Shown: piece by piece, positions 3,330 to 41,209 of the stretch
How the letters are laid out: every line of letters starts with the position of its first letter
How positions within the stretch are numbered: the stretch's first letter is position 1
Assembly: GCA_045656465.1 (NCBI GenBank)
Contig: JAZORG010000097.1
Coordinates: forward strand, 1-48,856
Length of the DNA: 48,856 nucleotides
Reading direction: 5' to 3'
Origin: Christensenellaceae bacterium
GTDB taxonomy: Bacteria; Bacillota; Clostridia; Christensenellales; Borkfalkiaceae
Notes under the pieces: model-generated
What the model was told of the DNA's origin: nothing
The model's input: only the letters and a program-made list of their open reading frames with translations
Databases searched by the model: none
Made by a program: the position numbers and the translations under genes

Positions 3330-3342
3330 TTCTTCTCCTTTT

Positions 3343-4577: not shown

Positions 4578-4591
4578 AATTTCTCCTGTTA

Positions 4592-6866: not shown

Positions 6867-6879
6867 TTGATATTCTCCT

Positions 6880-13527: not shown

Positions 13528-13810
13528 TTATTCACCTCACTAAACTTGGATAGAATACTTTATGCATTTTTTATTCGGGATATAATAGAAAGCAAGTCCA
13601 TATATTTAATTTTAATTTTTGTCATAAACCTCTTTACAAACATTTAAAGCGGTATATAATACCCTCGGCGTTTGGAAAAAATTCTTGGGAGGGAAAAATG
13701 TATAAGAATTACCATTTTTTAAGATTTACTTCATTTTATGAAAGGCTTAAGGCAATTATGGAAAAAGATAATGTCAAATAATTTTCCCGCCCGAAGGCTG
13801 GTGAAAAAAA

Positions 13811-14362: not shown

Positions 14363-14382
14363 TTGTTACAACTTAATATTTG

Positions 14383-14410
14383 GGCGGAACTTTTGTTCCG
14401 CCTTTTTTTT
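14383..14410 (+). terminator. Rho-independent terminator
   Basis: Stem GGCGGAAC (14383-14390) and GTTCCGCC (14395-14402) with a TTTT loop, followed by a run of 8 T. Confidence 0.7.
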
Positions 14411-14424
14411 AGCATATTTTTATT

Positions 14425-21743: not shown

Positions 21744-21771
21744 ATTTATTTCTCCTTAAATTTTTAACTAA

Positions 21772-23142: not shown

Positions 23143-23357
23143 AACATTCTCCTAAATATTTTAAGGTTTGTTTTTATTTATTGTTTAAGTTCTTTATTAA
23201 TGCGAAGTTTATAACTCCTTGTTTTTCACTTTGCACCTTTAAGGTGTTAGAAACGAGCAGTTCTAGGCTCGTGCAGGGTTTTGGATGAGATAAACCTTTT
23301 TGGTTATTGAAGTCAAAACCCTAAACAGAAACGCAGAAATGCGAAGTTTATAAATCC

Positions 23358-24998: not shown

Positions 24999-25037
24999 AA
25001 AATTACTCCTTTATATAGTTGATATTTTTTTCGTTAA

Positions 25038-26309: not shown

Positions 26310-26332
26310 TTTACAATCCTCCGATTTTTTTC

Positions 26333-26447
26333 ATTTGTGATTATTATAACATATATAATAATGTTTTGTATCCCCTTAAATATAAGTTGCAAAAAGAATT
26401 TTTTTATGATAAGATATAATCACAAATAAACAATAATAATCACATTT
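26333..26447. promoter_or_regulatory. Divergent promoter region with three copies of a TGTGATTAT/ATAATCACA motif (candidate DeoR operator sites)
   Basis: ATTTGTGATTAT (26333-26344) is the exact reverse complement of ATAATCACAAAT (26416-26427). A third copy, ATAATCACA, lies at 26436-26444. The first two sites overlap TATAAT-like -10 hexamers (26343-26348 on the minus strand, 26415-26420 on the plus strand). Confidence 0.4.
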
Positions 26448-26479
26448 AACACAAAAAACAATAAAAAAGGAATAAAATT

Positions 26480-27256
26480 ATGCTTTCACTTGAACGTCAA
26501 GAGGAAATTCTTGAAATTTTGAACAAAAATAAATCTGCAACGGTAGAAGAGCTTGCGCAAGAATTATTCGTAAGTGGTGCTACAATTCGCCGTGATTTAC
26601 GCACAATGGAAAAACAAGGGCTTATAAAGCGCTCTCACGGAGGGGCTATGCCCTTTAAGTCTAGTGCAGAAGAGTCTGCGTTTGCGATAAGAGAGCAAGA
26701 AAACACCTCTGCTAAAAGAACTATTGCTAACCTTGCCGTTAAACTTATAAACAACGGGGATTCGGTTTTTATGGATAGTAGCAGTACGGTTGGATTAACT
26801 ATTCCTATGCTAAACAATTTTAATTATCTTTCGGTTACCACAACGGGACTGCGTAACGCACTTTTACTCTCACAAACCAACAACGTGAAAATTTATATTG
26901 CAGGCGGACAAATACAAAACCACTCAAACTCCATTATTGGAACTGACACTATGGATTTTATTTCACGCATACACGCAGATATTTCTATTATAAGTTGCAC
27001 AGGGCTTGACCTAGTAAACGGCTTTACAGATGCAAGCATAGAGCAATCTAAACTAAAACAGCAAATGCGCAAAAATTCAAATAAAGTGGCAATGCTATGC
27101 GATAGCACAAAGTTTAACAAAACTTTCCTTTGCACGGATTTTCACTTTGACGAAGTCGATTATCTCATAACCGAAAAGATGCCCCCTATCGAATACGTCG
27201 AAAAAATATCAAACACAAAATGTAAGATCATCACTCCACAAAATACTAATTTCTAA
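26480..27256 (+). CDS. DeoR/GlpR family transcriptional regulator
   Basis: N-terminal wHTH (RQEEILEIL...SATVEELAQELFVSGATIRRDL) plus a C-terminal sugar-phosphate-binding DeoR-C-like domain. 258 aa. Confidence 0.9.
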   Translation: MLSLERQEEILEILNKNKSATVEELAQELFVSGATIRRDLRTMEKQGLIKRSHGGAMPFKSSAEESAFAIREQENTSAKRTIANLAVKLINNGDSVFMDSSSTVGLTIPMLNNFNYLSVTTTGLRNALLLSQTNNVKIYIAGGQIQNHSNSIIGTDTMDFISRIHADISIISCTGLDLVNGFTDASIEQSKLKQQMRKNSNKVAMLCDSTKFNKTFLCTDFHFDEVDYLITEKMPPIEYVEKISNTKCKIITPQNTNF

Positions 27257-27290
27257 AAAAACTGCGGTTGAAATCAACCGCAGTTTTTTA
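27255..27290. terminator. Bidirectional rho-independent terminator (ends both the DeoR gene and the eight-gene operon)
   Basis: Perfect 9-bp stem, CTGCGGTTG (27262-27270) and CAACCGCAG (27275-27283), with loop AAAT. Flanked by 7 A on one side and 6 T on the other. Confidence 0.8.
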
Positions 27291-28439
27291 ATCTAGTTCT
27301 GCATTTCTAAAGTTATCGTATTTATCTAAAAGGTCTGCTGGAATACTTGGTACAATTTTTTTAAATGCCTGTTCAAACATATCACGAGATAAAGGAATAG
27401 GTGTTGTTGAACGTGCCTCTATAAGTCTTTCCATAGCAATTCTGCACGCCTCTTCAACAACAGCGCAAATGTCAGCAGAAGAGAAATACGAATCAGTAAT
27501 TTCCTGCCCACAAACAACTTTTTTAGTTGCTTGCTCGGACATTTCAAGCACGTCTTCAGACGTAATACCATTAAGCGGTATTCCCGATAGTTTACCTTCG
27601 ATAATTGCACGTTTTGCAACTAAATCTGGTGGAGTTACGTGTATCAAGTGAGAGAAACGTTTATATCTTAAATATGCCGAATCGATAAGGTCGGGACGGT
27701 TAGTTGCGCCTATCAAAATACGCTTTGACCCGTCAACACCAAATCCGTTAATTCTCTGTAATAGTTCAGTAGTAACAGCCGACTTATAATCTTTTGTATC
27801 CGAAGTACGTTTACTGAATATTGATTCGCATTCATCTACAAAAAGTATTGCGCCGTCAGGACAAGCGTCTAGCTCTTCGAAAATTTGTTTTACCGCCTGT
27901 TCACTTTCTCCCACGTATGACTTAAAAATATCTGCAGGAGTAACGATTAACAGAGGGAGTTTCATTTCGTTAGCAATAGCCTCTGCTATCATAGTTTTAC
28001 CTGTTCCAGGTGCGCCGTACATTAAAAGCCCTAGCCCACCCTTTATTTTATAGTATTTTAAAATATCGGGATTTTGAGCCATAAAAAGGAATGTATGAAC
28101 GAGTTTTTTAACGCTATCAAGTCCTTTTACGTCATTTAATGTGGTTTCAGGTATCCTTGTTTGAATAACCGAACCATAACGCTCTGCCTCTTTGCTTAAC
28201 TGCTCGTGGAATTTTTTATATTTTGCGCTCTCTTCCCTATCCGTACTACGGTCGGAAATCTTTTTCGCAACGTTTGAAGCGTGGAGATATTCTGTACGCA
28301 AAGAACGCTTTTCCTCTAAAGTTAATTGAGTTTTATCAGGTTTTGAGGATAGAATTTTTCTAATCTCACCAACAACTTGATTAAACTCTTTTAAAAGATC
28401 GTCAAGTTGAACGCTTCCATTGTTTGCTTGTTCGCTCAT
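27288..28439 (-). CDS. Classic-clade AAA ATPase (Vps4/katanin/spastin-like single AAA module with a helical N-terminal domain)
   Basis: Walker A GAPGTGKT (aa 142-149), Walker B ILFVDECE, pore-loop-1 KSYVGESE and second region of homology ATNRPDLIDSAYLRYKRF. The first 100 aa or so are helical. RBS is AAGGAGGA. Confidence 0.9.
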   Translation of the reverse strand: MSEQANNGSVQLDDLLKEFNQVVGEIRKILSSKPDKTQLTLEEKRSLRTEYLHASNVAKKISDRSTDREESAKYKKFHEQLSKEAERYGSVIQTRIPETTLNDVKGLDSVKKLVHTFLFMAQNPDILKYYKIKGGLGLLMYGAPGTGKTMIAEAIANEMKLPLLIVTPADIFKSYVGESEQAVKQIFEELDACPDGAILFVDECESIFSKRTSDTKDYKSAVTTELLQRINGFGVDGSKRILIGATNRPDLIDSAYLRYKRFSHLIHVTPPDLVAKRAIIEGKLSGIPLNGITSEDVLEMSEQATKKVVCGQEITDSYFSSADICAVVEEACRIAMERLIEARSTTPIPLSRDMFEQAFKKIVPSIPADLLDKYDNFRNAELD

Positions 28440-28449
28440 ATTATCCTCC

Positions 28450-29169
28450 TTACGAAACTATATCGTCAATTCCGCCTGATGCTGATGAAGATGGTGCAGA
28501 CGCACTCGGAGCATCACTTTCATCCGCTAAACCTTTTTTAACCTTTACTCCGTGAATAAAGGCTTTCATTCTTGCGCTCTTCTCCATTGGCTCTGCGCCA
28601 GAAGTTTGGGCGATTTTCTTCTTGCGTTGTTCGGCTTGCTTACCCATAACCTTTTTCATTTTCATACAAGCACTTTGCATTGCATCAGAAAGCCCCGTAA
28701 CCATTTTGTATTTATATACCATACTTTCAGCAAGTTCATACATTCTGCCCGTGTTATTACGGATAGCCTTTTTCATTAAACGACGGCTTTTCATTCTTGC
28801 AAACCAGCCGTGTTTTTGCGCAACGCTATCTTCAAAAAGAATTTTATCAAAATTTATAGCATCGTCGATAAATTTTATAGCGTCTGATAAACATTCCATA
28901 GCCGTACTAATGCTGTTTATGGTATGCATCATATCTTGAAGTTCCATTGCAACTTCTAAAAAAGTTTGCATTAAAATCGTCAAATGGTCCTCTGCGCCAC
29001 GTTCCTTTTCCATTCTGTCTGTAGCCAAAGCAAGTTCATCTAAACGTTGGTAAAAACGCTGTTCGTTTTGCTGTTTTTGGTACCTTTGACGGTCGATTGT
29101 TCTTTCCTGCTCTTCTTGCATAAAAGTGTTGTTTGGTTTAACAATTTCCATTTGCTGTTTCTGTGCCAT
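28450..29169 (-). CDS. Hypothetical all-helical protein (239 aa) with a Ser/Ala-rich linker and a C-terminal GGIDDIVS peptide
   Basis: ORF with RBS AAGGAGAA, 10-11 nt gaps to both neighbours. Q/E/K/M-rich helices. No family recognised. ESCRT-III/PspA-like size and charge polarity is only an impression. Confidence 0.7.
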   Translation of the reverse strand: MAQKQQMEIVKPNNTFMQEEQERTIDRQRYQKQQNEQRFYQRLDELALATDRMEKERGAEDHLTILMQTFLEVAMELQDMMHTINSISTAMECLSDAIKFIDDAINFDKILFEDSVAQKHGWFARMKSRRLMKKAIRNNTGRMYELAESMVYKYKMVTGLSDAMQSACMKMKKVMGKQAEQRKKKIAQTSGAEPMEKSARMKAFIHGVKVKKGLADESDAPSASAPSSSASGGIDDIVS

Positions 29170-29180
29170 AACTTTTCTCC

Positions 29181-30665
29181 TTAATTATCACTTATTATTC
29201 CGTCTATGCCGTTATCGTTAGTTTGCTGTTTATTTTCTTCAGTCGCTGCAGTATTTCCGAGTAATTGCTCCATATATTTTGCTTTCTTTTCGTCTCTAAT
29301 TTTGTTTGCTTGCGACTGCTTTTGATTTTCCACCCTTTCGTCCTCAAGATAACTCTGTTCAAACTGCTCTTCGATTTTTTCCATACTGTCGAGGAATGCA
29401 TTGAGTTTGTCTTGAATTCTTCTTTCCACTTTGAGGTTATAGAGGTTGAGTTCGATAACGTAAGCAATTTCTTCGTCGGTAGCCCTTCCCTGCATAACTC
29501 TTGTAACTTTATCGTAATCGATTGCGCCACCCAAAACACAAAGCATAATCGGGTCGTTTTTAAAGCCTAGAATAGTTTTATTTAAGTATTCGAGTTTCTT
29601 TATAACCTTACCATATGCACGTTTTGCTCTCTTTGATTTTTGTATCTGCGCCCTGTTAATTTCAAGTTCTTTATTTATATCGGTAATTTTATCGTCAATG
29701 TCAACGCAATCGTCATAACACTCGTCTTCGCTAATCTGTCCTTGCTTAAACTTTTCAACAGCCTGTTGTTTTTCTTCTTTAAGTGTTTTGATTTGAGCCT
29801 CTAAAGACGCTACCGTTGCTTCTTCCTCTTCCGTTCCGTATCTATCGTTTATGATTGAATTTTTATAGTCTTTTAGGTTCTCTACGAAAATGTTTACTTT
29901 GCCTAACACTTCGCTACTTTCTGCAATAAACTGGAAGTCGTCCTTTTCAAATTTTCTTATATTTTCTTCTTTTGCCTTGTTGCTCTTTTTGAACAATCCG
30001 CCCTTAACTACTGCGCTTTTTAACTGTTGCCATTGATTAGCAAGATTAATCGCTTCGTCAATATAACTATTGGTTGCACTACTGTGCATATGTATAGATA
30101 CTTCATTTCTCCAAAGCACTATTTTATTAATTATGTCGTTAGCATAAAAAGCCGCCTGAACACTAGAATCATCAACAACGTCGCCTAATATTTTATCGAG
30201 CTGTTCGAACTTATCTATGCCATCTTGCAAAATAGCGTTTCTGCTATTTGCCATATCTACCGTCTGCATTACAGACGCACCTTTAACGCAAGAAGACGTG
30301 TACTTTTTAACTTCACCTAAAATGCTCATTTGTTTATTCTCCTTTAATAATCCGTCGGTAAAACTGAGAGTTTTCCCCACCTCTTTTTTAATTTTTTCTA
30401 ATTTTTTATCGGCTTTTGGGTCACTCATAAAAACAGCCGTTTTACACAACTCTTCAATGCTTTCCTTTATATCCCCCGAAAAACCGTTATTGACACCGTA
30501 ACGGGTGTATGTTTCTATTTTTTCGACTATCTCTTCAGAAAGTTTTTGACACGCATCGCTAGCGTATCCTTCTTCCTTTATGTATTTAAATTTCTCCTCG
30601 CACTTAACACCATTAGCGGTTAAAATCTCTGTAATTTTTGCTGTTTTCACTTTAATTCTCCTCAC
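29181..30665 (-). CDS. Hypothetical coiled-coil protein (about 490 aa) with a C-terminal NGIDGIISDN peptide
   Basis: ORF track (GTG at 30665). A better-supported start is the GTG at 30650, preceded by GAGGAGAA plus 5 nt and lying 1 nt after the upstream stop. Long K/E-rich heptad regions. No family recognised. Confidence 0.7.
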   Translation of the reverse strand: MRRIKVKTAKITEILTANGVKCEEKFKYIKEEGYASDACQKLSEEIVEKIETYTRYGVNNGFSGDIKESIEELCKTAVFMSDPKADKKLEKIKKEVGKTLSFTDGLLKENKQMSILGEVKKYTSSCVKGASVMQTVDMANSRNAILQDGIDKFEQLDKILGDVVDDSSVQAAFYANDIINKIVLWRNEVSIHMHSSATNSYIDEAINLANQWQQLKSAVVKGGLFKKSNKAKEENIRKFEKDDFQFIAESSEVLGKVNIFVENLKDYKNSIINDRYGTEEEEATVASLEAQIKTLKEEKQQAVEKFKQGQISEDECYDDCVDIDDKITDINKELEINRAQIQKSKRAKRAYGKVIKKLEYLNKTILGFKNDPIMLCVLGGAIDYDKVTRVMQGRATDEEIAYVIELNLYNLKVERRIQDKLNAFLDSMEKIEEQFEQSYLEDERVENQKQSQANKIRDEKKAKYMEQLLGNTAATEENKQQTNDNGIDGIISDN

Positions 30666-31794
30666 AAATATAATCCATTAAACTGTCTATTGCGCCCTCG
30701 TAATTTTTGCCTTTAAGGAACATTATTATATCGTCGTCAAAGAAAGTATAATTTTCCGCTCCGCCATTTATAAGACGTTTAATTTGCTCAAAATGATTAT
30801 TTTCTAATAGTTTTTTTATTCTGCTCATCTGTCCGCCTGAAAGGAATGCGTGTTTTCCTCCGGTATTAAAAAAGTATAAATAATACTCTTTCGTATCCCC
30901 AACCTCTTCAAGATTGTTTAATGTGCTTTGGGCGTTACTCATCTTGGTAAAATATCCGTCAATTTCATCAACTCTGCCGTTTTTACTTTCTATATATCTT
31001 ACCTCAAGCCCTTTTTGAATTGTTCTAAAAATTATTTTTGCTTTTTCCTTATCGCCTGTAAACAACTCTTTTAATTTTTCGCCGTCAAGTTTGTATATAC
31101 CGAAAAGTGGCGCTCTCTTCTTTTTGTTTGATGAAGTTATAAAAAGTTTTCTCAATTGGTCTGCAGGGTTTTCTCCACTACCCGAAGATGCGGTATGGTC
31201 AATTTCCATTGCGCCGTATATTGAGGTTATCTTATCAATATTAAACTCTTTATTATATTTTTTGAAAGCACCCAACTCTCTACTACTTGTAACTACAATA
31301 TTATACAGTCTTTTTGCTGCCTGTCTTTTTAGGTCTGCAAATTCATCAGATGTAAAACCTATTATGCCCTCTGATTTTTCCACCGAGGTTGCCGTGCTAT
31401 AACAAAGTGATGCGTAATACTCGAAAGCAACCCTCTTTTTATCCGCTTCGGATAGACTTTCCTCAAAATAACTTTCGTAATATCCGCCCATCTTAAAGAT
31501 TGCAAGGGGATGCCCTAAATAAGCCGACTCTTTACATACCGAGATTGCACGCTTAAGTAGTAATTCGTTTTCTTTAATAAACTTGCCCGTTTGCCCTTTT
31601 TCTTTTTTAGCCATTGTTAAATATTTAAAGTAGTAAAGTTCAGAAAGATTAAACAGGTCGTTATTTTTTTCGGTAATCTTAAAATCACGTATTACAGATA
31701 ATTCTTCTTTACAAAACGGACAGGTTAAAACGCCGTTAAAAAGTTCTAGTGGCGTGGCAATATTTTTCCCACACGCAGGATTAACACATTTCAT
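30652..31794 (-). CDS. Hypothetical protein with an N-terminal zinc ribbon and a Sel1/TPR-like helical repeat segment (380 aa)
   Basis: C3-x4-C8 ... C25-x2-C28 (CVNPAC...CPFC). The segment AYLGHPLAIFKMGGYYESYF...AFEYYASLCY is Sel1-like. RBS is GAGGTGA. Confidence 0.7.
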   Translation of the reverse strand: MKCVNPACGKNIATPLELFNGVLTCPFCKEELSVIRDFKITEKNNDLFNLSELYYFKYLTMAKKEKGQTGKFIKENELLLKRAISVCKESAYLGHPLAIFKMGGYYESYFEESLSEADKKRVAFEYYASLCYSTATSVEKSEGIIGFTSDEFADLKRQAAKRLYNIVVTSSRELGAFKKYNKEFNIDKITSIYGAMEIDHTASSGSGENPADQLRKLFITSSNKKKRAPLFGIYKLDGEKLKELFTGDKEKAKIIFRTIQKGLEVRYIESKNGRVDEIDGYFTKMSNAQSTLNNLEEVGDTKEYYLYFFNTGGKHAFLSGGQMSRIKKLLENNHFEQIKRLINGGAENYTFFDDDIIMFLKGKNYEGAIDSLMDYICEEN

Positions 31795-31803
31795 ATCTCA
31801 CCT

Positions 31804-34701
31804 CTACTCCGTTTGTTGTTCAATTATTGTAAACGTTACCGTATCGTTTTCTAATAAATAATTATTTATATCAGATGAATTGGTTATTTTTGCCGTTGCA
31901 GTATGTTGCCCTGCCGTAATCTGCCCACCGAGAACGTGAATTGATAGTCCATTTTCATTAACAGTTGCGGTCGGAATGTGTTTTTGTCCGTCATAGGTAA
32001 ACTCGGTATTCGCCCAAACAACTGTTACACGCTTCTTCTCTATACCAAATTCACAAACAGTGTTTTCAAGCGTATAATTGTTTTTATCCATAGCATCAGT
32101 TAACCTTGCAATTGCTGTATAATTAGTACCAGCATTAATTGCTCCACCTGTAACTTGTAAGCCAAGTGATTGCCCTTTAACACCACTAACGGTGGCTTTA
32201 GGCGTTTGCTCACTTCCGTTATACACTAAAATATCTTGCGACCAAATAACGTTTATACTCTTTTTCTCTATGGTATATTCTTTCGTTTGATTTGTCAACG
32301 TGTAATTTGTATTATTAACGCTTGCAGATGCCGTGTGCGTTCCTGCATCCGTACCACCCATTACTTGAGTATAAATCCTACCATCAGTTCCAAGTCCTGC
32401 TATATATGCTTGAGGCGCTTGTTCATATCCATTGTATGTAAGCGTTTTAGAAGTATCCCAAATAACTTCCGCCTGATAAGGCGTAATTACAAATTGATTT
32501 GTTACATCGCTGAAATTATAGTTACCGTCATAAATTTTTGCTGTCAACGTATGCGTCCCCGCATTTTTAACTGACTTATCGAATTCGTCTATGGCTATTT
32601 TCCCTATTATAGGAGTGTTTCCGTCAAGTCCAACTACCCCCATATAATATGCGGTGGGATATTGAACTTGTCCATTATAAACCTTTTCGGTATCTTCCCA
32701 AGTAACAGTCATATCTGCTTTTTGTATGGTGTATGCAACCTGATCTTCACTCAATGTGTAAAGTTCACCCCATTGCTCGCCGAGTGATAATCTCAACAAA
32801 TAATCTCCTGCATCAATTAAATCGTTATGCAACTCTATCGGTGCGGAAATGCTTTTATCTAAAGTTACAACGTCAGAACCGACCATTCCCGAAACGGTTG
32901 CGCTCCAAATTTTGGGCGCACCAGTATAAACTGCATTTTCGGGTTTAATCCATTCTACTTTAAGTTGTTTTTTTGCAACGCTTAAATCATAAGATATAAA
33001 CGCCGTTTTTTCCAAAGAGGATTTATCTGTTTTTGCTGTAACCGCTAGTATGTAATTGCTAGAATCTTGCGGACGGATAAGGTTGTTTACGTAACATTCC
33101 TCTCCACCTAAAATCTCCTCCCCTCTTTTCCATTGATAACTAAACGTTACGCCATCTGCCGAATGTGTTGGTGGTGCAGACAGTTTCAATGTTATTTGGT
33201 CGCCATAAACCGCACCATCATTCCCCGTGTCTTCAAGCACAACGTTTTCAACAGTAGGCGCTTGCATATCCCATATAGGATATATAATAAGGTTTTCAAG
33301 TTTTAAGTTGTTAGAAAGTTTATCTAATGGATATTGTGTTGCTATATCTCCGTAAGTATAAGTCCACGAAAGATTAAAGCCATCTCTTTTGACAATACCA
33401 TTTTCCGCATCTAGTTTTGTCAAATCGTTAGCAGTTGAATTTATAACGTAACGATAACCTGTTCCAAACGGATTTTTTACGCTATCGCTAACAATATATT
33501 TAGTATCGTTACTGTCGCCTATACGAAGTTTATATATCTGTTCAAACGCAAGATTTAGTTTCTTTGTGTTTTGATTTACCGACAAACCATTTATTGAGGG
33601 TTTTATTAGCACGTAGCCGTTATCCGAATAGCTTTCAAAAAGTGCTCTTTCGCTAGACGTGTCCGAATACTTAACATAATCGTAACCATCAGAAAAATCT
33701 TCAATATTAAACACGTCGCCTTGAGCGCCGAACCAAGCGTGAATAGGTTTTCCCTCAATAAGTTCAAAACTTTCTTTTGAATAAGCAAAAGTAATGAATT
33801 TCCCACTCACGTTTTTAGGCTGAATTGCATTATAGAAGTTTAGATATTCTTGACTATAATCGTTGTCTTTTACAGTTTTTGTCGCTAAATCCTTAAACTC
33901 GTTAAACTGCGCATAATCGACGATTATTTCCGTTTTTACGTCAGAAGGCATTTTGTTATTAAAAGTTACCTGTGTTCCATCTTCAAATTCTACCGACCTA
34001 AGATTTTTATCCGTAAAAGCCTTATCTTCAATCTTTAGCACGGGTTTAGCGTTAAACTCTTTTGGAATAAAGGCCTTTTCCGCTTTGCCCGAAGCAAACT
34101 CTTTTACCGTATATGAATCGGTATCTTCGTCGTACAAATAAATTGCGGGACGATAACTTAACTGACCTTGCCCGAAAAGACCGTTTCCTATTACAAACAC
34201 GCCGTAATAAACGGCAGTGGCCGTTAACAAAAGAAACATAAGTAAGGTAAACGCTTTTGCCCCTTTACCTATTTTCACTCCTAATAGCGAGGAAAATAAA
34301 ATAAGAATAGAAACTAAAATACGAATTGCAAAAAACAATACTTTTGCATCTTTAGAAAAAACCTCGCTACCAACACTTGTAATAACGACAAACACCGCCG
34401 AAATAACAAGTGTAACTACAGCGTAAATTGCGGGGATTATTAAACTGTAAACATATCTAAAGTTTGATTTAGAAACGCTTACAACAAGCGTAAATGATAG
34501 TAATAGCAACATAAACGGTATAATCCATACAGGGAAACCGCTTATTTTTATTCCGCTTATAATACATAATGCAAACAACACCGCATCTAAAAACATTGCG
34601 CATACAGAACTTAATATAAGCCCTGCTTTGGTGCTTTTTATCCTACTTTTAGTGATGGCGCTACCGCCTGAATTAGAACGTATCATATTCGCACCTCTCA
34701 A
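31804..34701 (-). CDS. Polytopic membrane protein (5 N-terminal TM helices) with a large extracytoplasmic LRR-like/Ig-like/MBG-type repeat region
   Basis: Hydrophobic helices in aa 26-172. A BspA-type LRR-like segment lies around aa 200-250, and an Ig-like segment (VTFSYQWKRGEE) follows. There are about five C-terminal modules with Y(N/D/T)G..(Q/K).P signatures (VYNGQVQYP, TYNGYEQAP, VYNGSEQTP, TYDGQKHIP). The track start is TTG at 34701. The ATG at 34686 has a better RBS (GAGAGGTG). Confidence 0.8.
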   Translation of the reverse strand: MRGANMIRSNSGGSAITKSRIKSTKAGLILSSVCAMFLDAVLFALCIISGIKISGFPVWIIPFMLLLLSFTLVVSVSKSNFRYVYSLIIPAIYAVVTLVISAVFVVITSVGSEVFSKDAKVLFFAIRILVSILILFSSLLGVKIGKGAKAFTLLMFLLLTATAVYYGVFVIGNGLFGQGQLSYRPAIYLYDEDTDSYTVKEFASGKAEKAFIPKEFNAKPVLKIEDKAFTDKNLRSVEFEDGTQVTFNNKMPSDVKTEIIVDYAQFNEFKDLATKTVKDNDYSQEYLNFYNAIQPKNVSGKFITFAYSKESFELIEGKPIHAWFGAQGDVFNIEDFSDGYDYVKYSDTSSERALFESYSDNGYVLIKPSINGLSVNQNTKKLNLAFEQIYKLRIGDSNDTKYIVSDSVKNPFGTGYRYVINSTANDLTKLDAENGIVKRDGFNLSWTYTYGDIATQYPLDKLSNNLKLENLIIYPIWDMQAPTVENVVLEDTGNDGAVYGDQITLKLSAPPTHSADGVTFSYQWKRGEEILGGEECYVNNLIRPQDSSNYILAVTAKTDKSSLEKTAFISYDLSVAKKQLKVEWIKPENAVYTGAPKIWSATVSGMVGSDVVTLDKSISAPIELHNDLIDAGDYLLRLSLGEQWGELYTLSEDQVAYTIQKADMTVTWEDTEKVYNGQVQYPTAYYMGVVGLDGNTPIIGKIAIDEFDKSVKNAGTHTLTAKIYDGNYNFSDVTNQFVITPYQAEVIWDTSKTLTYNGYEQAPQAYIAGLGTDGRIYTQVMGGTDAGTHTASASVNNTNYTLTNQTKEYTIEKKSINVIWSQDILVYNGSEQTPKATVSGVKGQSLGLQVTGGAINAGTNYTAIARLTDAMDKNNYTLENTVCEFGIEKKRVTVVWANTEFTYDGQKHIPTATVNENGLSIHVLGGQITAGQHTATAKITNSSDINNYLLENDTVTFTIIEQQTE
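31816..32973 (-). repeat. About five diverged tandem repeats, each about 80 codons, encoding MBG/YxG-type beta modules inside the surface protein
   Basis: A recurrent protein pattern runs from aa 577 to 962: (V/I).W.....(T/V)Y(N/D/T)G..Q.P.A.V.G......(V/L).GG...AG.(H/Y)TA.A......NY.L.N....F.I. Confidence 0.6.
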
Positions 34702-36338
34702 TTAATCGCCGTCGGTTTCTTTAAGTAACCGTTTTCTTTTATATCGAGTTTATCGACAATGTATTTTTTGTTCCCCATAACGAATAATATAATTCCGTCA
34801 TCTTCAAAACAGTATTTTTTTGTAAACATATACTTTAAGCGTACACCCAACGATAGCATTTCTTTATAATCAGCATAACGCAATCTTGCTTCCGACTTAT
34901 CAAAATCGGCAGTATGCGCAAAACAGGTTGGGCAAAGTTTACTCTTAACCGCATCAGTCGAAAAGGTTCTTCCACAACAAGAACATTTAACTGTTGCAGA
35001 ATTCCCCTCATCATTTATTTTTTCAATCATATCACGTTTATCAAAAGCAAACACCAAAGATGGAGTGTATCTTCTCTCCCCGTCGTTTGTGGTATAAACC
35101 ACTTCGGGATAAGGGCAGTCTTTACATTTAATCATAACGTTTCCGTTCTGCTCTATCTTAAATGTGTTTTCTTCACAACGCCATACCGTACACCCGGAAT
35201 TACGTGGATTTTCACTGCAAGAAATTTTTATAAAGTGCTTACCGAAAGTGCTAAAATCTCTTATCTTTTCCACGTCGGATTTACTCAACCCCAAATCGCT
35301 TTGCTCTAAATCAATAACAACACTCTCTTTGCCATAAGAGGTGTTAAGCGTTATCACGTTATCCTCAATAAGCGGTTCTGAATTTCTACAATTTAAGCAA
35401 CTAACGGTTACCGTTTTGCTTGCGCCCTGCGTAACTTTAAGTGCAGGACGTGAATTAAATATAACGTTATATTCTGTTGAATAATATTTTAATTTGGTAA
35501 GATATAAAACGTTAACGTGTTGGCACTCTAATTCAATCGCCTCGTGCGATAATTTTTCAAGCATTCCGTTAACAACTTCTTCATCTCTAATATCGCCGAA
35601 AACAAGATACTCTGCAAAGTCGCCGTCGTTATTTCCCTCCAAAAGATTTTCAAGCGCAGAAAGAGAAACGTCAACAACGTTTCCGTCTATCTCCCCTAAA
35701 TCTTCTTCATTATCTTCTAACGCAACGTCTTTTAGTCCGCCGTCAATCTTCTTTGATACAGAACTTTTAATAGGCGTCATCTTCTTTCCGTCTTTAGAAA
35801 AATAAACCTTACCTATAACAGGTACGGATGCGCCCGTACCACCACTTAATTCAAGTCTAACGGTTACGCCGTAAATATCCTCTTCAACGTCATTTTCTTC
35901 CCTTAATTCAAAACGATCACTCATCTGTGGAAAGAACTTATCGGTTATTGCTTTCACTGCGCTGAAAACACTGTTTCTTTCCTCTTCTTTTTGAACCTTT
36001 GTTTTGGGTTTTTGAGTGTATTCTAATACAGAATACATCTTGTGATATTCACCCGTAACGTTTTCTATAAATTCCGAGAAAACCGCATTGTCGTTATCTA
36101 CGGTTTCCCCTCTAAACCCCTTAAACCAACTTGCGCCGTCCTCTCCAAAACCTTTGCGAACGGAAGACGCTTCGTTTCTTATACTTTCTTCATACACAAA
36201 ATTATGTATTCCATCTGTTATACCACCTATCGTACGCTTAATTTCAGAGTTGTTAAAACATCCTGCGTCTATGAGTGAACAAATACTTTCAAAGGCTTCT
36301 TTATATTCTTTGCCAACCGTAATTTTCTTCAGTTCCAT
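34698..36338 (-). CDS. Hypothetical protein with a Cys-rich (multi zinc-ribbon) C-terminal half (546 aa)
   Basis: CxxC pairs at aa 314/317, 405/408, 452/455 and 469/472, plus C374, C383 and C388. Acidic central region. The ATG lies 1 nt after the helicase stop, with RBS AAGGAG. No family recognised. Confidence 0.7.
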   Translation of the reverse strand: MELKKITVGKEYKEAFESICSLIDAGCFNNSEIKRTIGGITDGIHNFVYEESIRNEASSVRKGFGEDGASWFKGFRGETVDNDNAVFSEFIENVTGEYHKMYSVLEYTQKPKTKVQKEEERNSVFSAVKAITDKFFPQMSDRFELREENDVEEDIYGVTVRLELSGGTGASVPVIGKVYFSKDGKKMTPIKSSVSKKIDGGLKDVALEDNEEDLGEIDGNVVDVSLSALENLLEGNNDGDFAEYLVFGDIRDEEVVNGMLEKLSHEAIELECQHVNVLYLTKLKYYSTEYNVIFNSRPALKVTQGASKTVTVSCLNCRNSEPLIEDNVITLNTSYGKESVVIDLEQSDLGLSKSDVEKIRDFSTFGKHFIKISCSENPRNSGCTVWRCEENTFKIEQNGNVMIKCKDCPYPEVVYTTNDGERRYTPSLVFAFDKRDMIEKINDEGNSATVKCSCCGRTFSTDAVKSKLCPTCFAHTADFDKSEARLRYADYKEMLSLGVRLKYMFTKKYCFEDDGIILFVMGNKKYIVDKLDIKENGYLKKPTAIN

Positions 36339-36339
36339 A

Positions 36340-39210
36340 TCAGTTCATCTCCTTGTCGTTAGACAGCATTTCCTGAATTTCAGAAACTTTTTTAGCCTCT
36401 TTTTCTAGGTTTTCACAGAATGCTTTGCCACCGTCCTGAACGTAATCGAATGCCGAACGGATATAAGTTTCAAAAGTACGAGCAACAACGGGGTGTAATA
36501 TTCCTTTAACCCCTCTTGCCGAACAAATAGGACAAGACGCTTCCCATTTTTTATCGAATTTTATAGTATGCGGTTTTGGGAAACAGGTTGCGTATTCACA
36601 ATCAGAACAACCGTTTACCGCTTCTGCCCCCAAGCCTACTCTACATTTAGGCGGGCAAATTGATTGATAATTACAACTTTCACATAATGATATTAGATCA
36701 ATCTCCGACGCATTAGGATTGAATTTATAATATTCAAGCGCAGGGCATCTCCCTTTAAGCGCACCCGAAGTAAATCTTTCACAATGCGCAATTGAACATA
36801 TTTTACGACAATATAGTTCACGGTCGCCATTATCTCCCGTGTTACACATCACGCCTCTTCCGGTGTTATTAAACGCCATACAGTAAAATCCACCGCCCTC
36901 TTCGGAGTTAGTTCTTCTTATAAGGCTACCGCAGTTATCGCACTTGCTTTCGCTACTATTTATTTCTGTCATAAGCGTTCCGCGCACGTCAAATTGCCTA
37001 CAACGTTCGTTTTCGTTACAGAATATTCTATCCGCATCGGGACTTCCTTCCGACGCTTTCTTTAAGTAAGCCTCGTAATCTTCTTTTGCAAGCAGTTTAA
37101 CTTTACCGCACGCCTCACAACGGATAGTAACCATATTATCGTTATTACTACCAGCAATTATCGCCGCATCTCCGCTATTACTATTCATTAAACCTATGTA
37201 TGTAAAGTAAGATAGAACGTAGCCCTCTAATTTACGCATATCAGCAAGAGAATAAACGGTAACGTCCCTCTCTTGACCTAAACGGAAAATACGCCCTATG
37301 CGTTGTTCCATTGCGAGTGGATTAGGTGTTACTTGGAAATTTACTATAACACTACTTTTTTGTAAGTTTGCACCCTCTGTAAACGCCGAATCAGTTACCA
37401 CCAACACGGCATCTTCTTTTAAGTTAAACTCTTTCTCAATTATCGATTTATCGCCCTCTCCACCAACTAAAACTCTTTTAGCGTATTTTTCGTCGTCGCT
37501 TAAAGCAGTTATTACTTGGTCGTAAAGACGCTCTGATTTTTTTATGTCGTAATCGAAAAAGATTATTACTCGTTCCTTGTCGTGCTTATCTAAAATTTCT
37601 TTTAAGACTTCATACTTAAATTGCAATTCGGATTTATTATAATAAGCCCTGTATTCTATCTCAGTGTTCTTTTCATCAACAACTCTCTTTGCCTTTCTTG
37701 ACCCAGAATATCTGCCTAAAATTTCCCAGTAATAACGCCTTGAGTTGGGTTTTGCAAAATCCTCGTCCGAAAGCCCTACTTGGTTAAATATACCATTTTC
37801 GTTAAATAGAAGATTAGCAACACCTGCGTTGACGTTGTTTTTATCGCCCATACGCTTAACGTATTCTGTGAGCGAATAAAACGAACCGTCTGCCGTTTCT
37901 ACAGCGTTAGGTGCGCATAGATTATTCAAATCCACGTAAAGGTTGTCATTCACCACACCTTTTATTTTGATTTTTTCCGCCTCTTTTTTAAGTGGGAAAA
38001 ACATAACGTTTACAATTTTTTTGCTCTTTCTTATGTTGTCGTTCGGTTGGCGTATCATTATAGAACGCAACACGCCGTTGTGATATGCTTTAGCGATATT
38101 ATCCGACACCTTATCTTTTATCGTGGGGTTTTCCTCCAAAAACTCCATTATTAAAAAGCGTTTTTCGGCGTCTAATAATTGAACGAACCCCTCTTGATTT
38201 TTCTTTTTTATAAACTCATCAAATTCCTGATAAAAGTTATCTGTAACTTCAGAGTAGCGAACCTTATTGATAAAGTCCATAACCGTTTCTGCGCCACGAC
38301 AAATATGCTCTTTATAATAATTCTTTTCTTTTATGTAGGTTTCTGACCTTTCGCTGTCTTCCCCTTCGTCAAAGTCCGCAGGGTTACCACCTTTACAGCG
38401 GATAAAATACCAAAGCCTAAACATACTTGCAAGATTTCCAGAGTGCGGTGTTGCAGAAAGCAATAAGCAATAGGTTTTCCTTGCCTTTTTCTTTGTTTGC
38501 ATTAAAACGGAAAGAAGTTTAAGCGATTTTGCATATTCCCCTTCTTCTGCGCAAAGGTTATGCGCCTCGTCAACCACAACAACGTCAAAGAGAACGCCAT
38601 CAACGTCGCTTTCTCTCCACTTTGCAAAGTCTTCTGCCTTAACTATTATAGGACGTTTGGCGTGCCAAAAGCCATCTTCCGCCCTTTCTAAAAGGTCGTT
38701 TTCATACGCTAACTGTTCAACGTTTTTCAAAACGCCCTCGCCAAGTCCAAATTTATTTTCCAAAACGTCAATCCACGTATTATATACTTGAGATGGAACA
38801 ATCAGTAGCATTGAAGAAATTTTGCCTTTTGCTGAAAGTTCTGATAATATCGAACAAGCCTCGAAAGTTTTTCCACTACCAACAACGTCTGCAAGCAACC
38901 CAAACCCACGCAATTCTTTAAGGAAGTTTTGCGTTGCTTTCTGTTGGTGAGATAAGATAACGTTATCTCCCTCGTGAAAATTCATTCTTTGAATGCCGTA
39001 TTTTTGATTGCCCTTTTTTGCAAAATCAGATGCAGACAACATTAAAGAGGCAAAATCGTCGTAACGATCAAGCACCTCAATGTGTTTATTCATCTCGGCA
39101 ATACGCTTTGTAAACTTTTTTCGGTCGTGAATACCCGAACGCTCACTTTGTCTATCGAATGCGCCCGAAGATACCGAAATCTTTAAGTTGTTGTTACTGT
39201 TTTTTTCCAT
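36340..39210 (-). CDS. SNF2/RapA-like SF2 helicase fused to a C-terminal Cys-rich (about 21 Cys) domain
   Basis: Motif I ADVVGSGKT (aa 107-115), motif II VVVDEAHNL, motif III LSATP and motif VI QRIGRIFRLGQ. There is a large insertion between the two RecA lobes. The Cys-rich array spans aa 698-896. Confidence 0.9.
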   Translation of the reverse strand: MEKNSNNNLKISVSSGAFDRQSERSGIHDRKKFTKRIAEMNKHIEVLDRYDDFASLMLSASDFAKKGNQKYGIQRMNFHEGDNVILSHQQKATQNFLKELRGFGLLADVVGSGKTFEACSILSELSAKGKISSMLLIVPSQVYNTWIDVLENKFGLGEGVLKNVEQLAYENDLLERAEDGFWHAKRPIIVKAEDFAKWRESDVDGVLFDVVVVDEAHNLCAEEGEYAKSLKLLSVLMQTKKKARKTYCLLLSATPHSGNLASMFRLWYFIRCKGGNPADFDEGEDSERSETYIKEKNYYKEHICRGAETVMDFINKVRYSEVTDNFYQEFDEFIKKKNQEGFVQLLDAEKRFLIMEFLEENPTIKDKVSDNIAKAYHNGVLRSIMIRQPNDNIRKSKKIVNVMFFPLKKEAEKIKIKGVVNDNLYVDLNNLCAPNAVETADGSFYSLTEYVKRMGDKNNVNAGVANLLFNENGIFNQVGLSDEDFAKPNSRRYYWEILGRYSGSRKAKRVVDEKNTEIEYRAYYNKSELQFKYEVLKEILDKHDKERVIIFFDYDIKKSERLYDQVITALSDDEKYAKRVLVGGEGDKSIIEKEFNLKEDAVLVVTDSAFTEGANLQKSSVIVNFQVTPNPLAMEQRIGRIFRLGQERDVTVYSLADMRKLEGYVLSYFTYIGLMNSNSGDAAIIAGSNNDNMVTIRCEACGKVKLLAKEDYEAYLKKASEGSPDADRIFCNENERCRQFDVRGTLMTEINSSESKCDNCGSLIRRTNSEEGGGFYCMAFNNTGRGVMCNTGDNGDRELYCRKICSIAHCERFTSGALKGRCPALEYYKFNPNASEIDLISLCESCNYQSICPPKCRVGLGAEAVNGCSDCEYATCFPKPHTIKFDKKWEASCPICSARGVKGILHPVVARTFETYIRSAFDYVQDGGKAFCENLEKEAKKVSEIQEMLSNDKEMN

Positions 39211-39221
39211 TGTACCCTCAA

Positions 39222-41147
39222 TTAACCTTTACTTACAGAAAAACTGCTAACGTTATCAAAAACTATCTCTATATCACGTGCATCTGCAAAAATATGCCTA
39301 TCTTTCCACAAAATTTCCACACGTTTTTTTGGCGAACAATTACGAATAAATGGGGTAGCCTTTCCGTGCTTATCTACACGAATACCCTCTATAAACTCCA
39401 ACACGTCGTCGTTTAAGATTGTAATCGGTTCACCGTCGTATCTAAAATAAATCTTGCTACGTGGACCGCCTGCAACTATTTTTAAATCTACCTTTTGAAT
39501 AGTCGCTCTGCGATATGCAGAATCATCATCCCCTATAAGAAGTTTGCCATTCACCGAATAACCCAACTCGCCTGCATACTTTCTTTCCTTAATATCCGAT
39601 TCGGTTATTATGGTAGAAAAAATCTCCTCACCGGTAACTCCATCTTTTCCCAAAGATAAGTCGGTAAAAAACTCTCTTCCGTCGTCAATCGGTTGACCAC
39701 GATTTACAAATATATCGAGCGTTTTTTGCTGTTCTCCTCTGTACGACCACGTTGCGTACGATAAGGATATAACCGTTTTAACTTCAATATTTTTTAGCGC
39801 AACAATCGCACTACCAACCGCTTGAGAGTAAATATTATCTTCATATGATAAAATTGAAAACTCGTCTCCCTCTTCGCAATTATCGTCAAAGGTATAAACG
39901 TTTACAAAAGCAAATTTTTCTTTTAGTTTATTTTTTATAAAGTCCGTTAAACCGTACGTCTCCGAAAGCCCACCCGAGATAATAATCTTTTTAACATCAC
40001 TATTACCAGGTCTTAAAAGTTCACTTTCTATATAATCGAAAACAGCCTTTGCTACACCCGTTCCATTTGAAACTCCAACGCAATCTAGCAAATTTTCTCT
40101 CGTTATTTTTCTTTGTAATATCAAATCACGAGAAATACTTACAGGCACACCGTTATTGAATATGCTATTCTCTCTTAACGGCCTACTTAAAATAATTTTC
40201 GCCTTTTTAATATCTTTCATCAAAAGATACTGTTTAGCGTACGTACTATGTTCGTCTATTTGACGTTGCCCGTTAAACGAACCCGTTCCGATAATTTCCC
40301 TTGAACAAATTCCCTTTTCTAAAAAATCGTTTATGGATTCATCAACGTTTACTCCGCCAATTTCTAACGGAAGATTATGCCCTTCTACACCCTCTGTAAC
40401 TAGATTGCCGTCTATGTGGCAAGCCTTAACAACCGAAAGGTATTCTTCCCCCATCTCGAACACAAGTACGTCGTCGTTATCGCCCACTAAATTTCTATGT
40501 TTTGCATAATAGGCAAGCGCTTTTGTCGATGAAAGGGTCTTTTTAATTTTATTCCCGAAAACCTTTCTAGCAAGCCTTTCAAGTTCAATAGCAAACTTAT
40601 CGCCAACGTGCGAGGGATAAACAAGGGATATTTCCACCTCGCTAAACGCTTCACCCATTATCGTCTGAAGTTTTTTCGTCTTTTCGTCAATTATATCGCC
40701 TAAATACTTAAAAAAACTTTCACATACCATTTGCGGAGTGTAATCGGGTGCTATAAAAGCCATTTGCTTTTCCACCATTTCAGCAAAGTTTTCTAGCATT
40801 TTTTTCCTTATCGGAAAATAAAACTTGGGGAAACTATGTTGTAAGCGGTAATATTTTTCATTGCTCTCACAAACACTCTCGTCCTTATTGCTCGAAAGCA
40901 ACGACAACAAACTCTTTATCTTTACAACCGTGATAAAGTTTTGATTTGCGCTCCTTTCAACGTCCGTTCCGTATAACCATTCTTTATCCTCTTCGCTATA
41001 ATAAGCGATTGCAGGTATTGCAATTTGGACTATTGCGTTTCCACCAGCAAATTTACCGTAAAACACCTCGCCGTCGCTATCTAGAGCGTATGCAATTTTT
41101 ACCGTATCGCTACCGAGGTCTATCCCGATTGCAAGTTTTGTTCCCAT
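39222..41147 (-). CDS. Hsp70-like (actin-fold ATPase) protein with a beta-rich C-terminal domain and no helical lid
   Basis: Phosphate-1 motif IGIDLGSDTVKIAYA. Degenerate phosphate-2 motif LVFEMGEEYLSV. Adenosine motif IIISGGLSETYGL. The last 190 aa or so are beta-rich, like an Hsp70 substrate-binding domain. 641 aa. Confidence 0.8.
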   Translation of the reverse strand: MGTKLAIGIDLGSDTVKIAYALDSDGEVFYGKFAGGNAIVQIAIPAIAYYSEEDKEWLYGTDVERSANQNFITVVKIKSLLSLLSSNKDESVCESNEKYYRLQHSFPKFYFPIRKKMLENFAEMVEKQMAFIAPDYTPQMVCESFFKYLGDIIDEKTKKLQTIMGEAFSEVEISLVYPSHVGDKFAIELERLARKVFGNKIKKTLSSTKALAYYAKHRNLVGDNDDVLVFEMGEEYLSVVKACHIDGNLVTEGVEGHNLPLEIGGVNVDESINDFLEKGICSREIIGTGSFNGQRQIDEHSTYAKQYLLMKDIKKAKIILSRPLRENSIFNNGVPVSISRDLILQRKITRENLLDCVGVSNGTGVAKAVFDYIESELLRPGNSDVKKIIISGGLSETYGLTDFIKNKLKEKFAFVNVYTFDDNCEEGDEFSILSYEDNIYSQAVGSAIVALKNIEVKTVISLSYATWSYRGEQQKTLDIFVNRGQPIDDGREFFTDLSLGKDGVTGEEIFSTIITESDIKERKYAGELGYSVNGKLLIGDDDSAYRRATIQKVDLKIVAGGPRSKIYFRYDGEPITILNDDVLEFIEGIRVDKHGKATPFIRNCSPKKRVEILWKDRHIFADARDIEIVFDNVSSFSVSKG

Positions 41148-41180: not shown

Positions 41181-41209
41181 ATATTATCACAACATATTAT
41201 TTTTTTCAA
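41181..41209 (-). promoter_or_regulatory. Putative sigma-A promoter of the eight-gene operon
   Basis: On the minus strand: -35 TTGAAA (41209-41204), a 17-nt spacer, and an extended -10 TGATAATAT (41189-41181). It lies about 30 nt upstream of the ATG at 41147 and downstream of the dtd terminator. Confidence 0.4.

Follow-up and report, generated by a model that had tools for sequence, protein, structure and literature searches.

A conserved operon of uncultured gut Clostridia joins an Hsp70-like protein, an SNF2-family ATPase, an AAA unfoldase and a fast-evolving membrane protein

Which function brings together, in one run of bacterial genes, an Hsp70-like protein, an SNF2-family ATPase, an AAA unfoldase and a membrane protein with a large repeat ectodomain, and has such a gene set been described before? 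The question is raised by eight minus-strand open reading frames (ORFs), named here g1 to g8 (Table 1), in a 48,856-nucleotide (nt) stretch of contig JAZORG010000097.1 from a Christensenellaceae bacterium; this whole stretch is called the window below. We conclude that the operon is a real, conserved and previously undescribed gene system of uncultured gut Clostridia, and that its gene set matches no described system. A preliminary description of the locus had weighed a defence role against a remodelling role; both stay hypotheses here, but the genomic signs typical of mobile defence are absent.

The eight ORFs form one tight block of co-directional genes. From g1 to g8 the successive gaps measure 11, 1, -4, 9, -14, 11 and 10 nt, in agreement with the spacing reported before (a 14-nt overlap to an 11-nt gap), and the coordinates first given for the eight minus-strand ORFs were all exact. 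More than 50 loci, from different species, share this gene order. When the scan was limited to one genome per species, 45 loci were found, all 45 of them in uncultured gut Clostridia. The labels of these hosts read Clostridia, Christensenella/Christensenellaceae, Candidatus Borkfalkia, Alloclostridium, Protoclostridium, Limadaptatus and 'Acidaminococcus sp. CAG:917'; together with Coproplasma and CAG-917 they are Christensenellales-like by label. As judged by tblastn and ORF clustering, no locus of sufficient length departs from the order g1-g2-g3-g4-g5, and g6, g7 and g8 are present in most loci. Furthermore, the g3 and g1 families were seen solely inside this gene order. Conserved synteny, which the preliminary description had named as a check on its proposal, is strongly supported by the retention of g1-g5 in all judgeable loci. 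The operon occupies 14-21 kilobases (kb) of small host genomes.

The phrase 'eight-gene operon' used at first is correct for the window but not for the system, which usually has ten genes. Look-ups from g8 homologues gave the common form as g1-g6, a protein with an HExxH motif, a DUF4011 helicase of superfamily 1 (SF1), g7 and g8. The HExxH protein is about 650 amino acids (aa) long, with an invariant H-E-x-x-H and weak SprT, M48 and M90 matches, and a comparison with the PDB returned nothing significant for it. The helicase, of about 1500 aa, matches DUF4011, AAA_11, AAA_12 and MTES_1575, a nuclease-like, restriction-endonuclease-like domain. It starts 3-60 nt after the HExxH gene in 14 of the 15 loci that hold both, the gap being 144 nt in L007 (L numbers denote loci). 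The extra pair between g6 and g7 was sampled at L050-L055 (about 2.7-9.2 kb), at L001 (17653-21629) and at other long-form loci. One lineage (L052/L053) carries two HExxH paralogues, and in L052 the pair is partly duplicated.

The eight-gene form was seen in the window, in its closest relative (L056, with g8 89% identical) and in a separate clade (L015-L027). Since the ten-gene form extends over most clades of the g2 tree, the peptidase-helicase pair must have been lost at least twice, including in the window lineage, and the window operon is a reduced form of the system. One further clade (L003, L034 and L035; 16.7-17.9 kb) has only g1-g5 at the locus, and hrcA follows after a gap of about 0.4-1.2 kb, the gap in L003 being 1.2 kb. 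At the other end, g7 always lies immediately before g8 in the eight-gene and ten-gene forms alike. The two genes hold the 3' end in both forms, with gaps of about 10-20 nt, and all four of the g8 homologues looked up (64-89% identical) sit at the end of the operon directly after g7. Alternative 3' ends, with a 'type A' AAA module replacing a 'type B' helicase module, were considered and rejected, because g7-g8 are also found behind the helicase, past the 21.6-kb limit of the loci.

Three NTPase classes were claimed to be combined in the operon, and the Hsp70 fold, the SNF2 ATPase and the AAA ATPase are all real. For g1, the proposed Hsp70/actin fold is borne out by an AlphaFold2 model built on 56 homologues, with a predicted local distance difference test score (pLDDT) of 88 and a predicted template modelling score (pTM) of 0.88. 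Foldseek superposes the whole of the model on Hsc70(1-554) and on DnaK (E 8e-24 to 1e-22, probability 1.00), and g1 is accordingly modelled as a complete Hsp70-type unit of nucleotide-binding domain and beta substrate-binding domain. In sequence-based searches of the PDB, the one match for g1 was a weak one, of the family profile to the Hsc70 nucleotide-binding domain (E 0.03). The GIDLGS motif is present. In an hhalign alignment with DnaK, INEPTAA is replaced by LSSTKAL, which changes the catalytic Glu171 to Ser, and DLGGGTFD is replaced by D/E-MGEE-x-S, so that the canonical DxGGGT phosphate-2 loop is not kept. Pfam, including its HSP70 model, gave no match to the window protein at E <= 0.01. 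With its catalytic motifs altered and no Pfam HSP70 match, g1 therefore represents a divergent branch of the Hsp70 proteins and is possibly a weak ATPase, one that may bind nucleotide yet hydrolyse it poorly. The family comprises 188 clusters, almost all of them unnamed or called 'hypothetical protein'. For the operon proteins at large, the names used in public records are 'hypothetical protein', 'ATP-binding protein' and, in a single case, 'Hsp70 family'.

The assignment of g2 as an SF2/SNF2-type helicase is supported by Pfam, with SNF2-rel_dom at 46.9 bits (cut-off 24.9), Helicase_C at 40.9 bits (cut-off 23.5) and also ResIII, and all of the motifs quoted for it are present. GSGKT, DEAH, SAT and QRIGR are at least 90% conserved among 41 homologues, the window protein reading QRIGRIFRLGQ. 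The C-terminal part of about 260 aa (window 36340-37130) contains about 22 invariant Cys residues in groups of four, with CX2CX5CX3C at residues 843-856. These residues could form several zinc ribbons or iron-sulphur (Fe-S) clusters; no family match was found for this domain.

The classic AAA assignment of g8 is equally well founded. Pfam AAA matches with E 1e-32 (113 bits), and all motifs previously quoted are present, namely GAPGTGKT, ILFVDECE, YVGESE and ATNRPDLID; ATNRPDLIDSAYLRYKRF supplies the second region of homology with the arginine fingers. These features place g8 among the classic-clade AAA+ unfoldases. In the PDB it comes closest to the D2 domains of VAT, p97, Cdc48 and AFG2 (E 1e-63 to 1e-55; VAT D2 by phmmer, E 7e-63), and NCBIfam matches to CDC48, PAN, CdvC, FtsH and IteA all lie far below their cut-offs. 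The label 'Vps4-type' was too specific and is not supported: no Vps4 occurs among the top 60 PDB matches, where the D2 domains of Cdc48, VAT and AFG2 are closest, g8 reaches 123 bits with the CdvC model (cut-off 650), and a profile of the N-domain of about 95 residues matched nothing in the PDB and found no MIT domain. g8 is also the most conserved component of the operon, with 64-68% identity across the family compared to 23-60% for g1-g6.

The remaining proteins are less readily placed. The 11 invariant Cys residues of g3, the signature protein of the system, have zinc-ribbon spacing in the family alignment. Its AlphaFold2 model (pLDDT 81) yielded nothing significant against the PDB by Foldseek (best E 0.055, TM about 0.1) and no match among the BFVD viral models (best TM 0.16). 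The family is small, with 33 clusters in a word-indexed search and 226 representatives, nearly all full-length, among 1.84 billion proteins in an exhaustive profile search. For g5, a zinc ribbon is found at the N-terminus of most homologues, many members have weak Zn_ribbon and TPR matches, and comparison with the PDB gave sub-threshold matches to Sel1, MotX and TPR proteins. The Cys-rich or zinc-ribbon modules first proposed for three proteins are thus present in g2, g3 and most g5 homologues. Similarly, a crude heptad count indicates coiled-coil character in g6 and in residues 43-116 of g7, in line with the two coiled-coil proteins proposed before. None of g5, g6 and g7 matches a family. For g7 in particular, sequence and profile searches gave no Pfam or PDB match, no protease match was obtained and no record with its exact product was found.

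Following a low-complexity linker, g6 and g7 end in similar tails, NGIDGIISDN in g6 (29181-29215) and GGIDDIVS in g7 (28450-28480), and the terminal motif I/L-D/S-D-I/L-V of g7 is conserved across its family. The likeness of the two tails suggests that they may serve as a common docking peptide.

The 5-TM protein with a large repeat ectodomain announced in the preliminary description is g4. A hydropathy scan showed a short K/R-rich N-terminus and five hydrophobic or transmembrane helices at residues 33-171; the portion of about 790 aa after the helices is presumed to be extracellular. At its C-terminal end (about 655-960) stand four tandem MBG-type repeats of about 75 aa, each with Y(N/D)GxxQxP, and in homologues the MBG_3 model reaches significance (up to E 9e-24, with 6 repeats). 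The length of g4 ranges from 797 to 1454 aa across homologues (L001-L049) as the number of MBG or immunoglobulin (Ig) repeats changes. Furthermore, g4 is about twice as divergent as the other operon genes, with 73% identity where these have 83-89%, and 40-43% where these have 60-78%. Fast divergence and length change of the ectodomain suggest diversifying selection at the cell surface.

The earlier claim that the gene set belongs to no named system holds in PADLOC, NCBIfam, Pfam and the searched literature. Neither PADLOC nor Pfam matched g1 or g3-g7, and we found no literature description of this gene set, nor of any operon joining an Hsp70 fold, an SNF2 motor, a Cdc48-like unfoldase, usually an Upf1-like helicase, and a fast-evolving surface membrane protein. 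Individual components do have relatives in described systems. The nearest PADLOC profiles to g2 are BrxHII (E 2e-32), DrmD (2e-28), HmaA (3e-24) and DpdE (1e-22), with DrmD at 4e-34 in NCBIfam and RapA also matched. However, the likeness to DISARM, BREX, Dpd and Hma is limited to the two helicase lobes of g2, its Cys-rich C-terminal domain being specific to this protein, and against the DISARM and Dpd helicase models g2 falls 5- to 10-fold below the cut-offs (NF038317, DrmD, 118 bits against 610; NF041062, DpdE, 99 bits against 500). The eight proteins contain no DUF1998, PLD or methylase domain, the BrxHI/HII core matches g2 alone while no other BREX model matches g1 or g3-g8, and no other Dpd model was matched. 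The partner proteins of these systems (DrmA/B/C/M, PglZ/PglX/BrxC, DpdA-C, and the Hma methylase and ATPase) are absent from the operon.

Zorya senses at the envelope and acts on DNA at the site of entry, and the logic that we propose for the operon below is Zorya-like. Both combine a membrane component with a cytoplasmic SNF2 motor, and ZorD matches g2 weakly (PADLOC E 2e-13, NCBIfam E 4e-4), covering part of the protein with 18 bits against a cut-off of 1500. In contrast to Zorya, the operon encodes no MotA/ExbB-like or MotB/OmpA-like proteins, g4 being a five-helix anchor with a repeat ectodomain, no ZorA, ZorB or ZorC model was matched, and g2 has no Mrr-like nuclease. Zorya, in turn, is not known to include an Hsp70-like protein, an AAA unfoldase or proteins with zinc ribbons.

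Degenerate ATPase motifs also occur in the Hsp70-like proteins of CoCoNuTs, which are predicted immune systems (PMC11090510). At the level of themes the operon resembles the type III CoCoNuTs (CnuD; PMC11090510), which share with it a degenerate Hsp70-like unit, coiled coils, zinc ribbons and, in some cases, extra AAA-type ATPases. These systems are built on McrBC, however; the operon has no HEPN or other ribonuclease, and no match to a McrB-type GTPase or to McrC/DUF2357 was found in the eight proteins with Pfam, NCBIfam or PADLOC. GTPase-Hsp70-tubulin conflict systems were rejected as well, since they need GTPases, which the operon does not have. As working analogies we use the DnaK-ClpB disaggregase and the action of Cdc48/p97 with SPRTN/Wss1 in DNA-protein crosslink repair. 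The long form of the operon shares with them an Hsp70 fold, a Cdc48-D2-like ring, an HExxH protein and helicases. The homology is at domain level only, however: g1 has no catalytic Glu, the operon has neither a J-domain protein nor an exchange factor, g8 forms one ring and not two, and the window form has no peptidase. Among the PADLOC models the best match of g8 is IetA, the AAA ATPase that forms the anti-phage pair IetAS with the protease IetS (Gao et al.; E 3e-34, residues 40-309), but there is no subtilase-type IetS partner, NF042959 (IteA) scores 102 bits against a cut-off of 510, and g8 scores higher against the CDC48, PAN and CdvC models. Finally, the helicase of the ten-gene form is a collinear match to PDC-S37 (E 1e-42) and also matches Hhe and Mokosh MkoA; this gene is absent from the window, and in relatives it is embedded between the peptidase-like gene and g7 and does not stand alone.

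What, then, might the operon do? We tentatively read it as a surveillance system, anchored in the membrane and stable in the chromosome, that would act on invading DNA, or complexes of DNA and protein, brought by phage or conjugation, although this reading could well be wrong. In such a system g4 would sit in the membrane and its rapidly diversifying Ig/MBG-repeat stalk would meet the outside agent, while g3, g5 and g6 would act as zinc-ribbon, repeat and coiled-coil scaffolds tying the membrane domain of g4 to the cytoplasmic motors. The SNF2 motor g2 would translocate on incoming double-stranded DNA, which the helicase-nuclease of the long form would destroy, while the metallopeptidase encoded beside it would do the same to proteins attached to the DNA. 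g1 and g8 would grip and unfold the protein parts, or assemble and reset the scaffold, and the conserved C-terminal peptides of g7 (and g6) would bring in g8. It speaks for this reading that parts are gained and lost as modules, that the helicases have defence-type relatives and that the surface protein diversifies. Further arguments are the nearest profiles of g2 (BrxHII, DrmD, DpdE, HmaA and ZorD), the match of the long-form helicase to the defence candidate PDC-S37, the precedent of degenerate Hsp70-like proteins in CoCoNuTs, and the protein-handling parts, namely the Hsp70 fold of g1, the pore loop and arginine fingers of g8, the long-form HExxH protein and the tails of g6 and g7.

Several observations weigh against a surveillance role. 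The operon diverges in step with DnaK and GrpE of its hosts, the pattern that vertical descent would give. Where host DnaK is 98% identical, GrpE is 89% identical and g1, g2, g3 and g5 are 83-89% identical; at 93-94% for DnaK, GrpE stands at 67-74% and the four operon proteins at 58-78%; and at 66-67% for DnaK, GrpE is at about 31% and the operon proteins at 26-42%. g4 is the exception, with 73% identity in the first of these comparisons and 40-43% in the second. The operon is confined to one bacterial lineage, the gut Clostridia, in which all 45 genome matches fall, and searches of IMG/VR contigs, phage records and plasmids turned up no copy, on which grounds an origin from a mobile element was rejected. 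Its flanks are mostly housekeeping genes, among them GltX and other tRNA synthetases, ribosomal protein S2 with EF-Ts, NrdD, CPSase, DAP epimerase, SpoVAD and the dnaK operon. Within PADLOC, NCBIfam and Pfam, the only matches are to generic helicase and AAA cores, with every NCBIfam score several-fold under its curated cut-off. Neither a nuclease nor a toxin can be recognised in the eight-gene form of the window, the cytoplasmic loops of g4 are very short, which makes an inward signalling route hard to see, and the roles proposed above for g3, g5, g6 and g7 are pure inference.

The defence-island context implied by the preliminary description also did not materialise. When 90 flanking proteins from about 40 loci were scanned with PADLOC, HTH_VI was found in three and mad8 in two, with single matches to type IIG restriction-modification, mad3, SspH, pVip, DrmMI and PbeA. 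Defence genes are thus only occasional among the flanks, and with few such flanks, one lineage and no mobile copies, the operon has neither a defence-island nor a mobile setting.

The same evidence lends itself to a different account, somewhat less probable in our estimate, in which the operon is a lineage-specific cellular machine that builds, anchors or turns over g4, or remodels the envelope or nucleoid during growth or sporulation, with g1 and g8 as chaperones and the SNF2 and SF1 motors working on the cell's own DNA. Divergence in step with host DnaK and GrpE, housekeeping flanks at a location that is stable within each clade, restriction to one lineage with absence from phage and plasmid collections, and a window form without a nuclease all fit such a machine. 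The host is in addition a spore former, as deduced from the GerA/GerAC genes in the window (12826-18180), with SpoVAD in one flank of a related locus. Furthermore, the operon adjoins hrcA-grpE-dnaK-dnaJ in two clades (L003, L034 and L035, at about 17.1-21.4 kb; L036, L043 and L049, at about 0.6-4.8 kb), on opposite sides, lying downstream of it in one clade and upstream in the other. This adjacency may reflect a functional link of g1 with DnaJ and GrpE, or it may be coincidence; control of the operon by HrcA through CIRCE was rejected, since CIRCE was found solely before hrcA and never before g1.

In contrast, chromosomal position varies in a way that is less expected of a cellular machine. 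The flanks are conserved within clades and different between clades, and even the window and L056 differ in their downstream neighbours, which are TSCPD, DUF4364, NUDIX and BipA in L056 (11192-19381) and deoR and dehydrogenases in the window (19266-27256); the chromosomal position therefore differs even between near relatives. The modular 5-, 8- and 10-gene forms would be unusual for a core machine. Two DNA or RNA motors and a nuclease-like domain have no obvious place in the biogenesis of a surface protein, the operon has no recognisable partner for the secretion or sorting of g4, and the family of the long-form helicase is listed as a defence candidate.

The surveillance reading can also be taken further, to a new class of bacterial immune machine fixed in the chromosome of a major gut lineage that attacks at the membrane by protein unfolding and DNA translocation, as a prokaryotic counterpart of p97-SPRTN processing of DNA-protein adducts. 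We regard this extension as unlikely. Under it, a hypervariable g4 stalk would mark the entry site and g2 would seize the incoming DNA, and a g1 clamp, g8 and, in the full form, the SprT-like protease and the helicase-nuclease would strip and destroy the proteins attached to it. Terminal proteins, ejected phage proteins and relaxases would be the targets, and the tails of g7 and g6 would recruit the unfoldase.

An equally doubtful proposal holds that g7 and g8 are a bacterial remodelling pair of the ESCRT-III/Vps4 or PspA/Vipp1 kind, in which g7 (and g6) would form polymers that g8 disassembles by their C-terminal peptides, while the rest of the operon would target the pair to a membrane site marked by g4. 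The layout of g7 resembles that of ESCRT-III proteins with a MIM motif: it is about the size of ESCRT-III and helical, and its heptad-like stretch leads through a flexible linker to a terminal peptide that is conserved. In g8, a family-specific helical N-domain precedes a single AAA ring, the NCBIfam CdvC model aligns almost end to end (residues 16-377 with positions 31-364 of 370), and a few homologues have a precomputed Pfam Vps4_C match. Hsp70 is reported to act on Vipp1 oligomers (PMC12798727), which we count in favour of this proposal. However, the low CdvC score, the top 60 solved relatives without Vps4 and the N-domain profile without an MIT domain, as given above for g8, all count against it. 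Similarly, neither Snf7 nor PspA_IM30 was found for g7 as a single sequence, for g7 and 14 homologues in Pfam at E values up to 1, or for the g7 profile against the PDB. An ESCRT-III/Vps4 pair thus receives no support at sequence level from Pfam or from PDB profiles, and with Pfam, NCBIfam and PADLOC no defining partner gene of Cdv was seen in the operon.

Least probable is a juxtaposition of independent units that share a transcript, namely a core of g1-g6, g7 and g8 as a separate pair of chaperones and, in relatives, a stand-alone defence helicase inserted together with its peptidase: the clade with g1-g5 alone, the coming and going of the peptidase-helicase pair, the listing of PDC-S37 by PADLOC as a single-gene candidate and the far higher conservation of g8 than of g1-g6 would suit it, but g8 follows g7 at the operon end in four of four look-ups, the g7-g8 position and its short gaps are kept in both forms, the g3 and g1 families occur solely in this gene order, and an AAA core would be highly conserved in any case, whether independent or not.

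Whichever account holds, the system matters for its hosts. Christensenellales-like Clostridia are widespread in human and animal guts and almost entirely uncultured, and the operon is kept in many of their species. No family match was obtained for five of the eight proteins (g3-g7), and the collections searched contain no structural relative of g3. Should the operon serve immunity, chaperones and unfoldases would join the known means of defence, and it would mean that large immune systems can be inherited vertically over the long term outside defence islands, in places that current discovery overlooks. Should it instead be a cellular machine, new aspects of envelope or chromosome biology would be expected in this lineage. 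Experiments can take hold of the system through its ATPase motifs, through the tail of g7 and through the natural variants with 5, 8 and 10 genes.

Table 1. Positions of the operon genes, their candidate signals and other features of the window.
Feature	Position	Strand	Description
g1	39222..41147	-	Divergent Hsp70 homologue, 641 aa; predicted nucleotide-binding domain and beta-sandwich substrate-binding domain, without helical lid
g2	36340..39210	-	SNF2-family ATPase, 956 aa; motifs I, II, III and VI and a Cys-rich C-terminal domain of about 260 aa
g3	34698..36338	-	Signature protein, 546 aa; two alpha/beta domains followed by a zinc-ribbon cluster
g4	31804..34701	-	Sole membrane protein of the operon, 965 aa; TTG start uncertain
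g5	30652..31794	-	380 aa; N-terminal zinc ribbon, Sel1/TPR-like helical repeats, C-terminal domain with invariant F-x-D-D-D
g6	29181..30665	-	Helical, coiled-coil-like protein, 494 aa; low-complexity linker and short acidic tail; GTG start overlaps g5 by 14 nt
g7	28450..29169	-	Met-rich helical protein, 239 aa; Ser/Gly/Ala/Pro-rich linker; conserved C-terminal peptide I/L-D/S-D-I/L-V/I/L
g8	27288..28439	-	Single-ring classic-clade AAA+ ATPase, 383 aa; Walker A/B, YVG pore loop, family-specific helical N-domain of about 95 aa
Candidate sigma-70-type promoter	41181..41209	-	TTGAAA, 17 nt, TAATAT, TG extension; 9 of 12 positions match; 34 nt upstream of the g1 start
Likely bidirectional terminator	27255..27290 (approx.)		Hairpin CTGCGGTTGA-TTTC-AACCGCAG; 8-bp stem CTGCGGTT/AACCGCAG; flanks A6 and T7; read from the sequence
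DUF7934 protein	within 618-8617	-	Phage gene
SU10-like major capsid protein	3402-4577	-	Phage gene
P22/SU10-like portal	4986-6866	-	Phage gene
Large terminase	7148-8617	-	Phage gene
Sigma-70-family factor	12826-13527		Window gene
GerA/GerAC spore-germination genes	14425-15894, 16963-18180		Window genes

The signals around the operon were less uniform than first described. A strong Shine-Dalgarno site had been attributed to every ORF, and the quoted sites are indeed present, AAGGAGGA upstream of g8, AAGGAGAA upstream of g7, AAGGAG upstream of g3 and GAGGTGA upstream of g5. However, no obvious site was found for g4, with its TTG start, or for g6, with its GTG start, so that either these two starts are less certain or the genes are translationally coupled. 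The single sigma-A-like promoter proposed upstream of g1 does have its box at 41209-41181, but this is weak evidence and the element is a candidate, since promoter-like matches in the region (56) barely exceed those in shuffled sequence (42.5 +/- 5.3). Just upstream of this candidate, dtd ends in an 11-bp hairpin with a T-run (41272-41246). Inside the operon, terminator-like sites showed no excess over shuffles (10 against 10.7). At the downstream end, the bidirectional terminator described before at 27255-27290 is visible in the sequence as a hairpin that separates g8 from the convergent deoR and that the pattern scanner did not list; it is likely a terminator common to the operon and deoR.

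The surroundings of the operon agree with the earlier account, which placed it between dtd and a DeoR-dehydrogenase locus, in a window that also contains phage genes. On the g1 side lie dtd, a radical-SAM activase, a cation-efflux transporter and sbcCD, and on the g8 side deoR is accompanied by genes for a zinc alcohol dehydrogenase and a 2-oxoacid dehydrogenase complex. Searches of the window for Rfam families and tRNAs found none. As noted among the flanks, SpoVAD was seen at one related locus. The phage packaging and structural genes (618-8617) run on the minus strand to the contig end, about 19 kb from the operon, and represent a prophage or a phage fragment.

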